Assembly (NCBI GenBank): GCA_905235375.1 | Contig: CAJOLH010000004.1 | Location: forward strand, 2,133-66,132 | Length of the DNA: 64,000 nt | Direction: 5' to 3' | Origin: an uncultured Bacteroidales bacterium | GTDB lineage: Bacteria; Bacteroidota; Bacteroidia; Bacteroidales; UBA3663 | Part shown: piece by piece, positions 5,903 through 59,826 of the stretch | Layout: every line of letters begins with the position of its first letter | Position numbering within the stretch: position 1 is the stretch's first letter | Notes under the pieces: model-generated | What the model was told of the DNA's origin: nothing | The model's database searches: none | Seen by the model: the letters and a program-made list of their open reading frames with translations, nothing else | Program-made: the position numbers and the translations under genes

Positions 5903-6050
5903 TTTCGAACACGGAATGCACTGAGGACACGGAAATTAGCGGGTCACAAAGGAGGCCTGAGTGCGTTTCTTCGTCGCACTCAGGACGGATGCCACTGAGG
6001 CTTGACGCGAGACGTGTTCCGTGAGTTTCGTGTGTTCCGTGGTAGAATTC
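5903..6050 (+). repeat. A element copy 3 (hairpin 5956..5984)
   Basis: This is the longest copy and includes the 3' GTGTTCCGTGAGTTTCGTGTGTTCCGTGG segment. Confidence 0.85.
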
Positions 6051-6473: not shown

Positions 6474-6597
6474 TTTTTATTATCGAACACGGAAGACACC
6501 GAGGACACTGAAATTAGCGGGTCACAAGGGAGGCCTGAGTGCGTTTCTGCGTCGCACTCAGGACTGAAGCCACTGATGCTTGACGCGAAATATATTC
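6474..6597 (+). repeat. A element copy 4 (hairpin 6534..6562)
   Basis: Same architecture as the other A copies. Confidence 0.85.
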
Positions 6598-16901: not shown

Positions 16902-18257
16902 ATGAAACATTATCACAAATCACTGATAGGACTGGCAAGCCTTGCACTGCTCGTCTGCTCGTGCAACAGTTCGAACGAACAAACGAACCAAGAGGGCAGT
17001 CAGACAATCCAGCTGAGCGACAACGAGCTGCTTGACCTTGTGCAGCAGCAGTGCATGAACTACATGTGGGATGGTGCTGACCCGACCTCCGGACTTGCCT
17101 ACGAACGCATCCACCTCGATGGCGTTTATCCTGCGAACGACAAGATGACGATTACCACGGGTGGTTCGGGCTTCGGTGTTGCCGGCCTGATAGTCGGCAT
17201 GGATCGCGGCTGGATCAAACGTGCGGATGGCGTGGCTCGACTGACCCGCATCGTCGATTATCTGGCAAAGGCCGACCGCTACCACGGTGTCTGGTCGCAC
17301 TGGATGGACGGTCCTTCGGGCAAGACCATCCCCTTTGGCACGAAGGACAACGGAGGCGACCTCGTGGAGTCGTGCTTCCTGATGCAGTCGCTGCTTTGCG
17401 TGCGCCAATATCTGAAAGCTGATGTCGAAGCGGAAGCCTACGTCATCGACAAGATCAATGAGCTATGGAAGGCCATGGAGTTCGACTGGTACACACGCGA
17501 AGGCCAGCACGTAATCTATTGGCATTGGAGTCCCAACTATGGCTGGGAAATGAACTTCCCGCTGGAGGGCTACAACGAGTGCCTTATCACCTACATCCTT
17601 GCAGCTGCCAGTCCGACACACACCGTGCCTGCCGAATGTTATCACGAGGGCTGGGCACGCAGTGGCGGCATCAAGAGCGATGCTGCTCCCTACGGCTATC
17701 CGCTCGACGTGAAGCACAACTATGCCGAGGCGAACGGCGGTCCGCTGTTCTGGGCACACTACAGCTGGATTGGACTTTGTCCGAAGGGGCTCAAGGACCA
17801 ATATGCCGACTATTGGCACGTGACGGCTAATCATGCCCTTGCCAACTATGCCTACTGCGTGGATAATCCCAAGGGCTACAAGGGCTACAGCAAGGATTGC
17901 TGGGGCCTGACCGCCAGCTATTCGCCCGACGGATATGCAGCCCACGCTCCCAACCAGGACCTTGGCGTCATCACGCCAACCGCTGCCCTTTCGAGCTTCC
18001 CCTACACTCCCGAACAGAGCATGGCCGCCTTGCGTCATTTCTATTCGATGGAGTCGTTCCTCTGGGGCAAATACGGGCCGTTCGATGCCTTCTCGCTCGA
18101 TCCTTCGTGGACCCTTCCACGTTACCTTGCCATCGACCAGCTCACCATTGCACCCATGATCGAGAACTATCGCACAGGGCTGCTCTGGAAACTCTTCATG
18201 AGCTGTCCGGAAGTGCAGGAGGGACTGACGAAACTGGGGTTTACAATTAACAATTAA
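16902..18257 (+). CDS. GH144-like (DUF3131, 'glucoamylase family') putative endo-beta-1,2-glucanase lipoprotein
   Basis: The ATG at 16902 gives MKHYHKSLIGLASLALLVCSCNS. Size (about 450 aa) and sequence character match my recollection of the DUF3131/GH144 family. The assignment is from memory, not a search. Confidence 0.55.
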   Translation: MKHYHKSLIGLASLALLVCSCNSSNEQTNQEGSQTIQLSDNELLDLVQQQCMNYMWDGADPTSGLAYERIHLDGVYPANDKMTITTGGSGFGVAGLIVGMDRGWIKRADGVARLTRIVDYLAKADRYHGVWSHWMDGPSGKTIPFGTKDNGGDLVESCFLMQSLLCVRQYLKADVEAEAYVIDKINELWKAMEFDWYTREGQHVIYWHWSPNYGWEMNFPLEGYNECLITYILAAASPTHTVPAECYHEGWARSGGIKSDAAPYGYPLDVKHNYAEANGGPLFWAHYSWIGLCPKGLKDQYADYWHVTANHALANYAYCVDNPKGYKGYSKDCWGLTASYSPDGYAAHAPNQDLGVITPTAALSSFPYTPEQSMAALRHFYSMESFLWGKYGPFDAFSLDPSWTLPRYLAIDQLTIAPMIENYRTGLLWKLFMSCPEVQEGLTKLGFTINN

Positions 18258-18311
18258 TAATTAACAATTAATAATTAATAATTAACAATTAATAATTAAC
18301 AATTAATAATT
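18244..18311. repeat. tandem CAATTAATAATTAA (14-bp) repeat, G-free on the + strand, between GH144 and GH3
   Basis: About 4.5 units. The repeat begins inside the last codons of GH144 (..TINN*). Confidence 0.9.
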
Positions 18312-24987: not shown

Positions 24988-26265
24988 TTATTCGTACTCG
25001 AACACTCCGTTTTCAGTATGGAGCGTGACCTTGGCACCCTCGGAACGTGCTTCGACGTGACCGATAATCTGCGCATCGATGTTGAAGCTGTGGGCAATGT
25101 CGATGACCTCCTGGGCATATTCGGCAGGCAGATAGACTTCGAGCCGATGGCCCATGTTGAACACCTTATACATCTCGGACCAATCGGTAGCCGACTGCTC
25201 GTGAATGGTGCGGAACAGCGGCGGGATGGGGAAGAGATGATCCTTGATGACGTGCAGATTCTGGATGAAGTGGAGCACCTTGGTCTGTGCGCCTCCCGAG
25301 CAGTGTACCATGCCGTGGAGGATGGAGTTCAAAGAGTTTGAGGGGTTCGAGGGGTTCGAGAGGTTTGAGGGGTTCGAGGGGTTTGAGGGGTTTGAGGGGT
25401 TCGAGGGGTTTGAGAGGTTTGAGAGGTGAGAGCGGAACACATCGAGCATCTTCTTGACCACTGGGGCATAGGTGCGCGTGGGACTGAGCACGAGCTTTCC
25501 GGCATCGAGAGGACTGCCCTCCACCGGGTCAGTGAGACGAAGCTGTCCGCTATAGACGAGCGATTCGGGCACTGCATGATCGTAAGACTCTGGATATTTC
25601 CCGGCAAGATACTTGGCGAAGACATCATGACGAGCCGAGGTCAGACCGTTGGAACCCATGCCTCCGTTGTATTCCTTCTCGTAGGTGGCTTGTCCGAAAC
25701 TTGCGAGGCCGACGATGACGTCTCCAGCAGCGATGTTGGCATTGTCGATGACGTCAGAGCGCTTCATGCGACAGGTGACCGTGGAATCGACGATGATGGT
25801 GCGAGCCAAGTCACCGATGTCGGCAGTCTCTCCACCTGTTCCATAGACACCGATTCCCATCTCACGCAGTTCTGCCATCAGTTCGTCGTTGCCATTGATG
25901 ATGGCGCTGATGACTTCGCCCGGGATGAGCATCTTGTTGCGCCCAATGGTCGATGAGACAAGGATGTTATCAACAGCACCCACACAGATGAGGTCGTCGA
26001 TATTCATGATGAGAGAATCCTGTGCAATGCCCTTCCAGACGGAGAGGTCGCCTGTCTCCTTCCAATACATGTAGGCCAAAGACGTCTTTGTGCCTGCACC
26101 ATCGGCATGCATGATGTTACAATAGTCGGGATCGCCTCCGAGGATGTCGGGAATGATTTTGCAGAAAGCCTGTGGATAGAGGCCCTTGTCGATGTGCTTG
26201 ATGGCGTTGTGCACATCTTCCTTGCTGGCACTTACGCCGCGCATCATATATCTTTGGTCAGCCAT
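24988..26265 (-). CDS. purM: AIR synthase-related protein (Bacteroidota-type phosphoribosylformylglycinamidine cyclo-ligase) carrying a 36-aa (SNP)n insertion
   Basis: The ATG at 26265 gives MADQRYMMRGVSASKEDVH. PurM-like DGAGTK and GMVHCSGGAQTK regions. Codons 25325..25432 are a 9-bp tandem repeat translated as LSNLSNPSNPSNPSNPSNPSNLSNPSNPSNSLN. Confidence 0.75.
   Translation of the reverse strand: MADQRYMMRGVSASKEDVHNAIKHIDKGLYPQAFCKIIPDILGGDPDYCNIMHADGAGTKTSLAYMYWKETGDLSVWKGIAQDSLIMNIDDLICVGAVDNILVSSTIGRNKMLIPGEVISAIINGNDELMAELREMGIGVYGTGGETADIGDLARTIIVDSTVTCRMKRSDVIDNANIAAGDVIVGLASFGQATYEKEYNGGMGSNGLTSARHDVFAKYLAGKYPESYDHAVPESLVYSGQLRLTDPVEGSPLDAGKLVLSPTRTYAPVVKKMLDVFRSHLSNLSNPSNPSNPSNPSNPSNLSNPSNPSNSLNSILHGMVHCSGGAQTKVLHFIQNLHVIKDHLFPIPPLFRTIHEQSATDWSEMYKVFNMGHRLEVYLPAEYAQEVIDIAHSFNIDAQIIGHVEARSEGAKVTLHTENGVFEYE
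25325..25432 (-). repeat. 12 tandem 9-bp units (GRGGTTYGAG-type) inside purM
   Basis: Read directly from the sequence. The units are GGGTTCGAG, GGGTTTGAG and AGGTTTGAG. Confidence 0.95.
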
Positions 26266-26347
26266 AGAATTACGTTTTAGCGGGTGCAAAGATAGTGATA
26301 AAAAACGAACTCACCAAATTTTACCCCTTTTTTCTTACTTTTACCAG

Positions 26348-39035: not shown

Positions 39036-39113
39036 CTTCTTAATCCCTTGGTCCCTTTCAATCCTTTCGAACCCCTTGAACCCTCTTAACCCCTCTTAAT
39101 CCCTTGAACCCCT
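39036..39113 (+). repeat. about 8.5 tandem 9-bp units of the same family (complementary orientation) between GH43 and the symporter
   Basis: CTTAATCCC TTGGTCCCT TTCAATCCT TTCGAACCC CTTGAACCC TCTTAACCC... Confidence 0.9.
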
Positions 39114-40612
39114 ATATTGTACTGGGTGTCATCGCCCTTTACTTCCTCATGGTGTTCGGCGTCAGCTGGTGGACTACCCGCCGTCGTGACCGCGACACCG
39201 AAACCTTCTATCGTGGCGATCGCAAGAGCCCCTGGTGGGTGGTGGCGATTGCCATGATTGGTACGTCCATCTCAGGCGTGACCTACGTCAGTGTGCCCGG
39301 CATGGTCGAAGCCAAGCAGATGAGCTACATCCAGATGGTGCTGGGCTTCGTCTGCGGATATTTCGCCGTGGCCTACATCCTGCTGCCTCTTTACTATCGC
39401 TTGGGGCTGTCGAGCATCTACGTCTATCTGGAGCAGCGCTACGGACGCTATGCCCACAAGACGGGTGCGGCGTTCTTCCTCCTGAGTAAGTATCTCGGCT
39501 GCGCAGTCAGGATGTATCTTACCGCCGTCGTGCTGCAGCTCGTGCTCTTCGACCAGCTGGGCGTACCCTTCGGACTTTCGGTGGCGTGCATCATGCTCAT
39601 CGTCTGGCTCTATTCGTTCCGGGGTGGTGTGAAGACGCTTGTCTGGACCGACCTGCTGCAGACACTCTGCCTGCTTTCGGCGATGATCGGGTTCGTGATC
39701 TGCATCAGTTCCGCCATGGGGTTGGACTTCACGGGGCTATGCAGCACCATTTCCGACAGTCCGATGTCGAGGGTATGGTTCTTCGACGATGCCAACGATA
39801 CCCGCTACTTCTGGAAGCAGTTCCTGGGCGGTATGTTCACCACCATCGCCATGACCGGTCTCGATCAGGACATGATGCAGAAAAACCTCTCGTGCAAGTC
39901 GCTGAAGGAGGCACAGAAGAACATGGTCTCTTACGGTTTCGGATTCCTGCCCGTCAACATCATCTTCCTTTCCTTAGGTATATTATTATATATGTACGCG
40001 CGCGAAGTGGGTGTTGATAAGAGTGGCGACGAACTCTTCCCCTATCTTGCCACAGGCATCAATCCAACCACGGGACAACCTTTCCTGCCCCTCATTGTGA
40101 GTGTGCTCTTCGTCCTTGGATTGGTGGCCGCTGCCTTCTCGTCGGCAGGTTCGGCAGTCACTGCACTGACCACCGCCATAATGGTCGATTTCCTGCGCAA
40201 GACACCCAATGAGGAAGGAGAGGGAAGTTTGAAGGGTTCGAGAGGTTTGAGGGGTTCGATAGAAGGCAAGCGTTTCCGTGTCCACATCATCAATTCCATC
40301 ATGATGGGGTTCATGATCTACCTGTTCCATCTGCTGTCATCGGGCTCGGTCATCAACGCTGTCTATGTGGTGGCATCCTATACCTACGGTCCGCTCATCG
40401 GACTCTTCTTCTTCGGCATGTTTACCAGACGCAAGGTGAATGACGGCTGGTGGATACCTGCCATCTGCATCGCTTCGCCTCTCCTCTGCTGGATTCTCGA
40501 CCAGCACTCCGAAGCATGGTTCAATGGCTATAAGATCGGCTACGAGATGCTGCTCATCAATGGTGCTCTGACGGCTATAGGACTGCTGGCAGCATCTTTG
40601 AGGAAAAATTGA
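39104..40612 (+). CDS. sodium:solute symporter family transporter with a short repeat-encoded loop insertion
   Basis: Polytopic membrane protein of about 500 aa with an SSS-like N-terminus. The TTG start at 39104 lies inside the 9-bp repeat tract, and an alternative ATG is at 39150. Residues SLKGSRGLRGSIE (40227..40262) are encoded by the GAGGGGTTY repeat. Confidence 0.75.
   Translation: MNPYIVLGVIALYFLMVFGVSWWTTRRRDRDTETFYRGDRKSPWWVVAIAMIGTSISGVTYVSVPGMVEAKQMSYIQMVLGFVCGYFAVAYILLPLYYRLGLSSIYVYLEQRYGRYAHKTGAAFFLLSKYLGCAVRMYLTAVVLQLVLFDQLGVPFGLSVACIMLIVWLYSFRGGVKTLVWTDLLQTLCLLSAMIGFVICISSAMGLDFTGLCSTISDSPMSRVWFFDDANDTRYFWKQFLGGMFTTIAMTGLDQDMMQKNLSCKSLKEAQKNMVSYGFGFLPVNIIFLSLGILLYMYAREVGVDKSGDELFPYLATGINPTTGQPFLPLIVSVLFVLGLVAAAFSSAGSAVTALTTAIMVDFLRKTPNEEGEGSLKGSRGLRGSIEGKRFRVHIINSIMMGFMIYLFHLLSSGSVINAVYVVASYTYGPLIGLFFFGMFTRRKVNDGWWIPAICIASPLLCWILDQHSEAWFNGYKIGYEMLLINGALTAIGLLAASLRKN
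40227..40262 (+). repeat. 4 tandem 9-bp units of the same family inside the symporter CDS
   Basis: GTTTGAAGG GTTCGAGAG GTTTGAGGG GTTCGATAG. Confidence 0.9.
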
Positions 40613-43256: not shown

Positions 43257-43830
43257 AATAATCTTTTGTGGTCGCTTCGCTCAAAAGAGCATAGCGACCA
43301 CCTACTACATGAATATCGAAAATCCGGAAATATCTAAAAATATTTTCGGACTTTTTCGTTTTTTCGGACATTTTCGGAATTACACCCATCGTATTTTGGA
43401 TTCCGAAAAACCACGAAAACATCGAAACCAACGAAAACTTTATTACTTCGTCCTTTTCAAGTCTTTGGATGTTTATTTCGATCACTGATCACACGAATCA
43501 CACGGATTATCTGTCGGCACAAAGGAAACCAGTGGTCATTGCTTTGCCGACCACTGGGCGGATAAAACGGATCCTTGCCCGTCATCTTATCTCTATGGTG
43601 TTTTTCTTATTTCTCTACGGACTTCAAGGACTTAATGGACTATCCCTGGAGTGCACAAGCAAAAGTCTGTGCCCTTACATCTCTACAGATTTCACAGATT
43701 TATCAGATTAGCGGCTCGGTCTTAAATAAATCCGTTCAATCCGAGAAATCCGTAGAGGAATGGGACTATCATTGACGTGCGCAAGCAAAAGTCCTTATAG
43801 TCCCGAAAGTCCGTAGAGAATAAATGATCT
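43257..43830 (-). repeat. mosaic repeat block with D, C and B modules in reverse orientation
   Basis: 43342-43445 is the reverse complement of the D module (compare 3088-3185). 43775-43822 is the reverse complement of a C module. 43650-43712 is a B-like module in reverse. Confidence 0.8.
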
Positions 43831-48024: not shown

Positions 48025-48490
48025 ATGACCATTTTGCGCCAAGATTGGGTATTCTTCAATCGCGGCATACCCTTTCTTGGCCAACTTTGGTTATGCTCCA
48101 AACGGATAAAGCACTCTAACGGCCGACAGAGTGCTTTTTCCAACCGAGGAATACCCTTTTTTAGCCGAAATTGGTCATGCTCCTGTCGCGGCATACCCTT
48201 TCCTGGCCAACTTTGGTTATGCTCCAAACGGAAAAAGCACTCTGACGGCCGACAGAGTGCTTTATCCAAACGAGGAATACCCTTTCTTGGCCGAAATTGG
48301 TTATGCTTCTGTCGCTGCATACCCTTTCTTTGCCAACTTTGGTTATGCCCCAAACGGAAAAAGCACTCTGACGGCCGACAGAGTGCTTTTTCCAACCGAG
48401 GCATACCCTTTCTTGGCCGAAATTGGTCATGCTCCAATCACGGCATACACTTTTTTGGCCAAGATTGGTTATGCTCCAAACGACGACTGT
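48025..48490 (+). repeat. tandem array, 126-bp period (3 x 42-bp subunits), about 3.7 units
   Basis: Unit starts are at 48061, 48187, 48313 and 48439. Each full unit has GCACTCTG-ACGGCCGA-CAGAGTGC flanked by an A-run and a T-run. Confidence 0.95.
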
Positions 48491-52322: not shown

Positions 52323-54221
52323 ATGAAGAAATGGCATATTGAGGACTCTGCGGAGCTCTACAATATTCATGGATGGGGTGTCAACTATTTTGACATCAAC
52401 GAGAAGGGGCACGTAGTGGTTACCCCGAAGAAGGACGGTGTGCAGGTGGATCTGCGCGAAGTGATGGACGAGCTGGCGCTGCGCGACATTCAGGCGCCGG
52501 TGCTGCTGCGTTTCCCCGACATTCTCGACAACCGCATCGAGCGAATGTCGCAATGCTTCCAGCGAGCTGCCGAGGAGTACGGCTACAAGGGGGAATGTTT
52601 CACCGTCTATCCCATCAAGGTCAATCAGATGCAGCCCGTCGTCTCGGAGATGGTGAGCCACGGCAAGAAGTTCAACCTGGGACTGGAGGCGGGCTCGAAA
52701 CCCGAGCTGCACGCCGTCATTGCCGCCTGCACCGACTACGACTCCATCATCATCTGCAACGGCTACAAGGACGAATCGTTTGTCGAGCTAGCCCTGCTTG
52801 CCCAGAAGATGGGCAAACGGATCTTCATCGTTGCCGAAAAACTCAACGAGCTCGAAACCATCAACCAAATTGCCAAGCGCCTGAATGTGCATCCTAACAT
52901 TGGCATACGCATCAAACTGGCCTCATCGGGTTCGGGCAAATGGGAGGAGTCGGGCGGCGATGCCTCGAAGTTCGGATTGACCAGTTCCGAACTGCTCGAA
53001 GCCGTCGAATACCTGGAATCGCATGGATTGAAAGACTGCCTGAAGCTCATTCACTTCCACATCGGCTCACAAGTCACCAACATCCGCTATGTCAAGACCG
53101 CCATCCGCGAAGCCTCACAGTTCTATGTGCAGCTCCGCAAGATGGGCTACGACGTGGAGTTTGTAGATGCTGGAGGCGGACTGGGTGTAGATTACGACGG
53201 CACACGCAGCGCCTCGAACTGCTCGTCGGTGAACTATTCGATCCAAGAGTACATCAACGACATCATGTACCAGATCATGGACGCGGCCGACAAGAACGAA
53301 CTGCCCCACCCCAATATCATCACCGAGTCGGGACGTTCGTTGTCGGCCCACCATTCGATACTCGTCATGGAGGTACTCGAGACTGCCACACTGCCCGAGA
53401 TGCCCGAAGAGTGGGAAGTAGGACCCGAAGACCACGAACTGGTGAAGGAACTGTACGAGATATGGGACACCCTGACACAGCGATCGGCCCTTGAGTCGTG
53501 GCACGATGCCCAGCAGATACGCGACGAAGTGCTCCAACTCTTCAGCCACGGCATCATTGACCTGAAGACACGCGCACAGATCGAAAAACTCTTCTGGAGT
53601 GTCACACGCGAAATCAACAATCTCATTTCGGGCATGAAGCGTGTGCCCGAAGAGCTGCACAACATCCCGAAGCTCCTTGCCGACAAGTACTACTGCAACT
53701 TCTCGCTTTTCCAATCGCTGCCCGACATGTGGTCCATCGACCAGATATTCCCCATCATGCCCATCCAGCGTCTGAACGAGAAGCCTGACCGCAAAGCTAC
53801 GCTGCAGGACATGACGTGCGACTCGGATGGAAAGGTGCAGAGCTACATTGCCGAAAACCAGATCGTCAATGCCATGCCAATCCATTCGCTCAGGAAGAAC
53901 GAGAAGTATTACCTCGGCGTATTCTTAGTGGGAGCATACCAGGAGATCTTAGGTGACCTCCATAACCTTTTCGGCGACACCAACGCCGTGCATATCACGG
54001 TCAACAAGAACGGCTACGAGATAGACCGAACCATCGATGGAGAAACCGTACAGGATGTGCTGCGATGGGTGGAGTACGACACCAAGAAAATGGTTCGCAT
54101 CCTGGAGACCTGGGTCACCAAATCGGTCAAGACGGGCAGCATCACGCTCGAAGAAGGCAAGGAGTTCCTCAACAACTACCGAAACGGTCTGTACGGATAC
54201 ACTTACCTCGAAAGAGACTAA
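52323..54221 (+). CDS. speA: biosynthetic arginine decarboxylase
   Basis: 632 aa. The N-terminus WHIEDSAELYNIHGWGVNYFDINEKGHVVV and the YPIKVNQ, GLEAGSKPEL and GGGLGVDYDG motifs are typical SpeA. Confidence 0.92.
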   Translation: MKKWHIEDSAELYNIHGWGVNYFDINEKGHVVVTPKKDGVQVDLREVMDELALRDIQAPVLLRFPDILDNRIERMSQCFQRAAEEYGYKGECFTVYPIKVNQMQPVVSEMVSHGKKFNLGLEAGSKPELHAVIAACTDYDSIIICNGYKDESFVELALLAQKMGKRIFIVAEKLNELETINQIAKRLNVHPNIGIRIKLASSGSGKWEESGGDASKFGLTSSELLEAVEYLESHGLKDCLKLIHFHIGSQVTNIRYVKTAIREASQFYVQLRKMGYDVEFVDAGGGLGVDYDGTRSASNCSSVNYSIQEYINDIMYQIMDAADKNELPHPNIITESGRSLSAHHSILVMEVLETATLPEMPEEWEVGPEDHELVKELYEIWDTLTQRSALESWHDAQQIRDEVLQLFSHGIIDLKTRAQIEKLFWSVTREINNLISGMKRVPEELHNIPKLLADKYYCNFSLFQSLPDMWSIDQIFPIMPIQRLNEKPDRKATLQDMTCDSDGKVQSYIAENQIVNAMPIHSLRKNEKYYLGVFLVGAYQEILGDLHNLFGDTNAVHITVNKNGYEIDRTIDGETVQDVLRWVEYDTKKMVRILETWVTKSVKTGSITLEEGKEFLNNYRNGLYGYTYLERD

Positions 54222-59654: not shown

Positions 59655-59826
59655 GGGGATTTTAAGGGATTCTTAGGGATATTTAGGGATTTTAAGGGAC
59701 GTTACTTTTGGCTATAGAAAATAGACCCAAGAAACATTTGTCCTTTAAAATCCCTAAGAATCCCTTAATATCCTTAAATATCCCTAAGAATCCCTTAATA
59801 TCCCTAAAATCCCTTAGAATCCCTTA
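59655..59826. repeat. word hairpin (TAAGGGATT-type units of about 11 bp) between the convergent LicD and GH9-like genes
   Basis: The left arm 59655-59699 faces the right arm 59740-59826. The right arm runs into the GH9-like stop codon. Confidence 0.9.

Follow-up and report, generated by a model that had tools for sequence, protein, structure and literature searches.

We examined a 64,000-nucleotide stretch of contig CAJOLH010000004.1 (assembly GCA_905235375.1) from an uncultured Bacteroidales bacterium, hereafter called the window, which carries on its minus strand a purM gene interrupted by a tract of tandem 9-bp units (Table 1). The original prediction described this tract as twelve consecutive units lying in frame within purM and encoding (SNP)n. 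The 108-bp span proved correct, but the count was slightly generous: ten good units form a core array, and each end carries one degenerate unit, GAGTTCAAA at 25325 and AGGTGAGAG at 25424. On the minus strand the tract is translated as ...MLDVFRSH-LSNLSNPSNPSNPSNPSNPSNLSNPSNPSNSLNS-ILHGMVHCSGGAQTK, with ILHGMVHCSGG... directly after LSNLSNPSNPSNPSNPSNPSNLSNPSNPSNSLNS, which is identical to the reading first given for it. Tandem Repeats Finder placed the array at 25336-25427 with a period of 9, 10.2 copies, and 89% matches, and it also reported a super-period of 27 bp with 93% matches; the longest exact repeat internal to the tract is 26 nt. A two-unit pattern matched 12 times in the window versus 0 times in 100 shuffles, and when we looked for clustered units, allowing one mismatch per unit, only three loci in the window emerged, with isolated units at chance level. 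The + strand, which serves purM as template, is the G-rich strand of the tract. With its units joined head to tail, each a multiple of three in length, inside an intact open reading frame (ORF) of 425 aa, the tract has the makeup of a coding variable-number tandem repeat (VNTR).

The host gene encodes a protein related to aminoimidazole ribonucleotide (AIR) synthetase. Two Pfam domains, AIRS (PF00586; E = 6.5e-10) and AIRS_C (PF02769; E = 5.7e-8), were found in it with scores exceeding the gathering scores. The purM equivalog model TIGR00878 gave 82.7 bits, below its cut-off of 236.35, and canonical PurM structures were weak matches (best E = 7e-13); the closest structures were 3MDO (685 bits; ∼85% identical) and 3KIZ (608 bits), both deposited as PurM or putative PurM. 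Because the low TIGR00878 score goes together with a close match to these two structures, we assign the protein by homology to a divergent PurM type that occurs throughout the Bacteroidota. Its relatives are named cyclo-ligase (phosphoribosylformylglycinamidine cyclo-ligase) in JGI. The possibility raised at the outset that this copy might be a pseudogene is not borne out, since the ratio of nonsynonymous to synonymous substitution (dN/dS) lies at 0.04 to 0.06 (0.038-0.061 against the nearest metagenome-assembled genome [MAG], the rumen Bacteroidales RGIG7607 [L001], and two further relatives, L002 and L003), and nearly all family-invariant residues are kept. No second purM copy was found within the 64-kb window. 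Purifying selection shows that the gene encodes a functional protein, for which conversion of phosphoribosylformylglycinamidine (FGAM) to AIR is the putative reaction.

We compared the window protein with 80 species-representative orthologues of 69-89% identity. Between the anchors VVKK... and ...HCSGGAQ, exactly 24 residues are present in 78 of the 80, against 59 in the window and 49 in L001. Among the protein clusters listed, an SNP-type insert was present in 45 cluster representatives with at least 88% identity, and 73 ordinary clusters at 83-87% identity were without it (...MRHE-IHGMVHC...). HMMER aligned both flanks of the tract to 3MDO, and the tract falls between residues 281 and 282 of that structure. 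In insert-free orthologues the site reads CGT CAC GAT ATC CAC, which is unlike the 9-bp unit, and no conserved nonrepetitive segment of equal length stands in place of the tract. As read from these alignments, the comparison shows that the array is an insertion that took place in the ancestor of the window's clade, to which the SNP-type insert is confined. Two longer proteins, P0001 (548 aa) and P0102 (436 aa), were considered as further repeat insertions and rejected; they carry internal duplications of PurM segments and are most likely misassemblies.

Between the invariant R278 and H317, variation is limited to two residues (H/Q/Y/S/P, then E/D/S/Q/K), and the insertion falls at these. It lies in the C-terminal domain of PurM, preceded by a conserved helix (...PVVKKMLDxxR) and followed by a conserved strand and glycine loop (IHGMVHCSGG). 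Since the site is a variable turn of two residues, with the helix before it and the strand after it both conserved, its position suggests an exposed turn or surface loop.

The tract was predicted to be polymorphic in length, and this is what we observed. Among the 45 close protein clusters we found 16 tract alleles, which add 11, 14, 17, 20, 22, 26, or 35 residues and for the most part differ by steps of 3 aa; the window allele is the longest and most regular, and some relatives carry decayed insert sequences, e.g., SLPSDATNG and SDATPLNPSEPLLTPQN. In the closest species representative whose DNA was compared (L318), purM is 90% identical at the nucleotide level and the flanks of the tract are identical, and the tract is shorter by exactly 72 nt, or 8 units. 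Rumen metagenome unitigs that are 96-98% identical to the window contained alleles 45, 63, and 72 nt shorter. Two flank-gap-flank pattern scans of the JGI metagenome collection gave no match, and hence no alleles came from that source. The observed alleles all differ by whole codons, in agreement with the proposal that slippage by 9 bp leaves the frame intact. Copy-number change never shifts the frame, so the tract is not a phase-variable contingency locus, and because its unit is 9 bp, it cannot be an on/off switch. Synonymous sites of the window and L001 genes are near saturation (dS of ∼1), yet each tract is still 89-93% regular. Since the arrays are regular despite this divergence, ongoing homogenization by slippage or unequal exchange is indicated; replication slippage or unequal recombination would change the copy number, and the units would be kept alike by concerted evolution.

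The same 9-mer family had been noted at two other sites in the window, one noncoding and one in a second coding sequence, and both sites are real. The array in the second gene, which encodes a sodium:solute symporter (Pfam SSF), lies inside the SSF domain and has the G-rich strand as the sense strand, opposite to the purM tract, and shares with the purM tract an exact stretch of 26 nt. Symporter relatives with at least 92% identity have GLR/GSR/GLK inserts of ∼2 to ∼10 GxR/GxK triplets, as counted by eye in the alignment, and relatives with at most 84% identity are without this insert. The symporter insert is clade-specific and behaves like the purM insert. A separate observation concerns a symporter with 78% identity (L208, 2575-2721), which has an independent insert nearby in the same loop; here inverted C-type units (PQTSQTPQ) come directly after units of the G type (KGLKGLKG), forming an inverted pair of arrays within one gene.

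The noncoding array is placed after the upstream gene's stop codon and before the symporter start. It is missing in L190-L194 and L202, in which the upstream stop codon is directly followed by ATGAACGCA, containing the ATG at which the symporter starts. The array is present in the window and in L195, where its last unit, TTGAACCCC, stands in place of that ATG. With the ATG replaced by the last repeat unit, the symporter now starts either at a repeat-supplied TTG (39104) or at an internal ATG (39149).

Table 1. The purM gene and the arrays of the 9-bp family in the window.
Feature	Position	Strand	Description
Bacteroidota-type PurM (AIR synthetase-like) gene	24988..26265	-	425 aa from ATG at 26265 (ORF 24988..26289); intact, under purifying selection
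Full tract	25325..25432	-	108 bp, core plus one degenerate unit per end; 35 residues beyond insert-free orthologues
Core array	25334..25423	+	Ten units GGGTTYGAG/AGGTTTGAG, each with ≤1 mismatch; minus-strand reading (S-N-P/L)n
Noncoding array	39036..39113	-	+ strand C-rich; 9- and 10-bp units GGGTTCAAG, GGGGTTAAGA, GGGATTAAGA, GGGTTCGAAA
Symporter array	40227..40262	+	3-4 in-frame units; SSF symporter loop (gene 39104/39149-40612); read SLKGSRGLRGS

We then considered the distribution of the unit beyond the window. A scan for three perfect units in 185,579 species genomes returned at least 109 stretches, at least 9 of them in MAG RGIG7607 alone. Several of the other matches listed were in further rumen Bacteroidales (RGIG7573, RGIG8089, SGB_5509, and Prevotella sp. 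P3-122, which has an array of 11 units in L125) and in MAGs of Saprospiraceae and Chitinophagales. A shuffled control unit returned 48 stretches, mostly in Actinomycetota and none in Bacteroidales. Matches in Streptomyces, Acidobacteriota, and other groups might have been taken as a sign of a universal element, and this reading was rejected, since the shuffled unit gives a similar background. The matches in other phyla are thus background, unlike the multiple loci that single Bacteroidota genomes contain. In metagenome run X1, the depth over the purM tract was 770-1600 versus ∼12 in its flanks, and many different flanking sequences adjoined the tract; this rise in depth with many flanks shows that the array is abundant at other loci. 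Across the unitig comparison as a whole, tract depth reached 3600. A side result of the control is that the shuffled unit, (GGTGAGTYG)n, was itself multilocus in two MAGs, one of Chloroflexota (L296, L297, L300, L312) and one of Aridibacter (L273, L289, L313), and genome-specific dispersed 9-bp satellites may be a wider phenomenon.

The purM tract had been attributed to an intergenic-type repeat. Noncoding copies do exist, but more than half of the arrays that we examined in sampled rumen loci and the window (23 of 41) lie within long ORFs. Depending on strand and frame, the arrays in genes of relatives encode SNP, PQT, LKP/LEP, GFE, or GLR/GSR peptides; among the 23 genic arrays, the frame is SNP-type in 14, GSR/GLR/GLS in 3, and LKP/LQP, QTP/QTS, and GFE in 2 each. 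The sense strand is C-rich, with the G-rich strand as template, in 18 of the 23. The unit is free of stop codons in five of its six frames and in all six when Y is C. A stop-containing variant, GGGTTAAGA, was seen in or beside apparently noncoding arrays, and the genic arrays examined consist of stop-free units. Freedom from stops as a property of GGGTTYGAG alone was considered as the reason for its presence in genes, and this explanation is weakened by an intergenic unit, GGACTTTTG, that is also stop-free by inspection.

The genes that carry arrays in related genomes number in the dozens and are unrelated to one another. In a histidine kinase, the array reads ...RITVTLN-LQPLEPLEPLKPLKPLEPLEPLKPLN-NIVLQVSDTGPGI... 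and is spanned by the Pfam domain HATPase_c. An ABC ATPase carries its array inside the Pfam ABC_tran domain, between the LSSGE signature and Walker B (one species has 4 units there, a second has 3), and a TatD hydrolase has one inside the Pfam TatD domain. In a helicase-like protein the array is read as GFE, and in glycoside-hydrolase-like proteins arrays lie inside the ORFs. In five 8-kb loci from related MAGs (L093, L126, L118, L149, and L158), single genes have two or three separate arrays; the L126 gene uses two frames, the array in the HATPase domain giving LEP/LKP and one farther downstream giving SNP.

Around the 41 arrays we found no conserved flanks, only further repeat units (often GGGTTAAGA in apparently noncoding settings), and the same flanks contained no palindrome, terminal inverted repeats, or conserved ends. 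The purM tract is a direct array only, and an inverted pair was found only in L208. Comparison of filled and empty purM sites showed diverged junctions in which no clear target duplication was visible. An Rfam scan of the window returned one tRNA and nothing at the repeats. Literature searches with the unit sequence, the encoded peptide motifs, and keywords found no description of such arrays.

On this evidence we consider it quite likely that the purM tract is a tolerated in-frame coding minisatellite (VNTR) that derives from a dispersed, genome-wide (GGGTTYGAG)n family in a clade of rumen Bacteroidales (Prevotellaceae-like). An array of this 9-bp satellite would have entered purM at a variable turn in the ancestor of the clade and would then have grown and shrunk through slippage. 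Arrays may persist in genes through a length that is always a multiple of three and a unit that is stop-free in most frames, and the commonest frame would supply a hydrophilic, turn-forming Ser-Asn-Pro peptide able to loop out of the fold. Selection would act as a filter on the position and frame of an array rather than on the function of the peptide, because the SNP-type frame makes up 14 of the 23 genic arrays and the stop-containing variants stand in or beside noncoding ones. As regards PurM, the tract most likely plays no part in catalysis and is carried along as a passenger that is neutral or of slight cost.

Several points weigh against this interpretation. The metagenome evidence on copy number comes from k=31 unitigs, which are possibly chimeric in repeats, and slippage is deduced from the pattern of alleles. 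The frame and strand counts include some orthologous pairs (e.g., L113/L133) and are not all independent. Dispersed 9-bp arrays are not unique to GGGTTYGAG, as the control unit is multilocus in other phyla. The AlphaFold2 model, built from a 32-sequence alignment, had a mean predicted local distance difference test score (pLDDT) of 40.9, because the homologues in the alignment are all at least 79% identical; it was not used, and the solvent exposure of the insertion site is a prediction from the alignments. Metatranscriptome runs contained 5-6% of the words of the gene, in contigs from related species. As a separate finding, the exact window protein was absent from the contig index.

We also considered that (GGGTTYGAG)n might be a selfish, actively propagated sequence that is copied to new sites, of which the purM tract would be one landing that later expanded. 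The mechanism would be a dedicated one or one linked to repair; candidates include a switch of template onto another array while a break is repaired, and RNA-templated addition. We regard this as a possibility to be held tentatively. Consistent with it, each genome has the unit at dozens of sites that are unrelated, with no restriction as to frame or strand; the exact 26-nt stretch is common to the arrays of purM and the symporter; the noncoding array is present in the window and L195 and missing in L190-L194 and L202; and in L208 the same loop of the symporter received a second insertion independently. However, the flanks yielded neither conserved sequence nor terminal inverted repeats nor a clear target-site duplication, and no associated enzyme was identified. 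The lack of ends and palindromes disfavors a classical MITE (miniature inverted-repeat transposable element). Moreover, both genic arrays of the window are old, being clade-wide, and recent mobility comes down to one presence/absence case that is possibly a loss. Active spread extends the explanation by a tolerated coding minisatellite and does not exclude it.

A function at the DNA level, with a G-quadruplex (G4)-forming or protein-binding tract that modulates transcription, replication, or recombination, appears unlikely. GGGG runs spaced 5 nt apart do fit the canonical G4 motif (four or more runs of at least three G, 1-7 nt apart; 25369-25399 and overlapping positions), and together with the GGGATTTTAA arrays at 59.7 kb, the arrays of this family account for all sites of this motif in the 64-kb window except one at 52928. 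Allowing G4 formation lowers the predicted energy from -21.7 to -40.2 kcal/mol, although folding is predicted only and the energy is from RNA rather than DNA parameters. The predominance of G-rich template strands among the genic arrays would also suit such a function, but this bias is explained equally well by the peptides that are tolerated. Furthermore, the positions of the arrays in genes are arbitrary and their copy number is unconstrained, with no positional logic.

It is very unlikely that the repeat peptide is functional in PurM, as an adaptive flexible loop or linker that alters oligomerization, regulation, or localization. The insert is in frame across the whole clade and the SNP-type frame is strongly over-represented among genic arrays, as this idea would predict. 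However, inserts are anywhere between 11 and 35 residues long and their sequence is free to decay in relatives, the same DNA gives unrelated peptides in other genes, and the insert is missing in the 78 insert-free species representatives, which extend across the order Bacteroidales (69-84% identical).

We likewise give little credence to a local, independent origin, in which a chance 9-bp duplication in purM was followed by slippage and the likeness to other arrays is a coincidence or convergence. Copy-number change of the slippage type is well supported at this site, and the 48 matches of the shuffled unit across prokaryotes indicate that any 9-bp unit can form arrays. Against this, the empty site does not resemble the unit, the identical unit with the same C/T wobble stands at three window loci versus 0 expected, and the loci sampled from related genomes contain it in at least 41 arrays. 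Because the identical unit occurs at dozens of sites, with one presence/absence case and one independent reinsertion, a purely local origin is disfavored. Finally, that the tract or its length is an assembly artefact is scarcely credible: short-read unitigs do end within the tract, with cycles ("goes back 33/62") in run X1, but two unitigs of X1, an independent run, equal the window with no mismatch over 25269-25391 and 25394-25617, and since they match the tract halves and the longest internal exact repeat of 26 nt is below k=31, the tract is not an artefact; homologous tracts are also present in independent assemblies from ENA, NCBI, JGI, and Logan.

We compared the favored explanation, a tolerated coding minisatellite from a dispersed family, with known systems. 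Rickettsia palindromic elements (RPEs) are dispersed repeats that are inserted in frame in many unrelated protein-coding genes (PMC10969869). Of the systems compared, they come closest in behavior: like them, the array is multicopy DNA found in unrelated conserved genes and in noncoding DNA, is compatible with the reading frame, and adds a peptide while the host protein is kept. The tract does not fit their structural definition, however. RPEs are palindromes of ∼150 bp, each family having its own ORF and a conserved peptide, whereas the GGGTTYGAG array is a pure 9-bp tandem of variable copy number that lacks a palindrome and conserved ends and is read in five frames.

Bacterial coding VNTRs of the type used in multiple-locus VNTR analysis (MLVA) consist of head-to-tail units that are multiples of three, their copy number varies among strains, and slippage is the accepted mechanism. 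The purM tract shares the head-to-tail arrangement, the multiple of three, and a copy number that differs among strains and relatives. Typical coding VNTRs are locus-specific and lie in surface or secreted proteins; the purM host, in contrast, is a cytoplasmic enzyme of core metabolism, and the unit recurs at many loci. As a locus, the tract is a coding VNTR of the ordinary kind, and what is unusual is its host gene. Cyanobacterial short tandemly repeated repetitive (STRR) sequences resemble the family in that one short tandem unit is dispersed over many loci of a genome. Their heptamer units are essentially intergenic and cannot stay in frame at arbitrary copy number, unlike the frame-compatible 9-bp unit, and they belong to a different phylum. 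Enzymes of Plasmodium falciparum contain Asn/Ser-rich low-complexity loop inserts of strain-variable length that are ascribed to slippage; there, too, a hydrophilic repeat interrupts a conserved housekeeping enzyme. Those inserts belong to a eukaryote and are driven by extreme A+T bias, whereas here one defined unit is read on both strands and in other frames.

The window contains further repeats, which we describe here as separate observations. Intergenic elements of ∼50-60 bp occur at 211, 530, 3256, 3334, 6124, 6182, 6298, 6453, 11894, and 11975 on the + strand and at 43651 and 43777 on the - strand; each consists of three tandem 9-10-bp units followed by TTGCTTGCGCAC, and they form two families, tctctacGGACTTnnnGGACTnTAAGGACTT... 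and GCACACAGATTCCTCAGATTCACACAGATTT.... Their 12-mer occurs 14 times versus 0.86 expected. Nearly all intergenic gaps in the window are mosaics of modules of three 9-10-bp units, with no Rfam match there. Between two convergent ORFs, the interval 59656-59826 comprises (GGGATTTTAA)x4.5, a 40-bp spacer, and an inverted (TCCCTTAAAA)x8.7, which together make a long potential hairpin of tandem repeats with canonical G4 motifs. At 48060-48483 lies a 126-bp tandem repeat of 3.4 copies with 90% identity and a 42-bp sub-period, each unit having a terminator-like hairpin (AAAAAGCACTCTG...CAGAGTGCTTTTT). The gap between two + strand ORFs at 18243-18311 holds (ACAATTA)x9.9 with a 21-bp super-period. A hairpin resembling repetitive extragenic palindromic (REP) sequences, GGAGGCCTGAGTGCG(tttcttcgt)CGCACTCAGG, is present at ∼5950-5990 and ∼6527-6560, at both ends of one repeat-rich intergenic region.

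Taken as a single locus, the purM tract is a curiosity that is probably harmless to PurM, and it provides a hypervariable marker in a core gene that is usable for strain typing of an uncultured rumen lineage. More valuable is the wider pattern, in which one 9-bp unit lies inside conserved domains of kinases, ABC ATPases, hydrolases, transporters, and PurM and is read in five frames that are used very unevenly. These arrays form a natural data set on where folds tolerate insertions, on how selfish or slippage-prone DNA is filtered by frame, and on the origin of bacterial low-complexity loops. In practical terms, they fragment short-read assemblies, raise local coverage, and can lead gene callers and domain models astray in metagenomes of the rumen. 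We suggest, as a speculative possibility, that (GGGTTYGAG)n may be a previously undescribed bacterial intragenic satellite, a stop-free nonamer array that would seed itself at new sites in essential genes and intergenic DNA and persist where loops absorb it. If so, rumen Prevotellaceae-like genomes, and possibly those of Saprospiraceae and Chitinophagales, would hold hundreds of natural "loop-insertion experiments," and the family would be to tandem repeats what the RPEs of Rickettsia are to palindromic elements.

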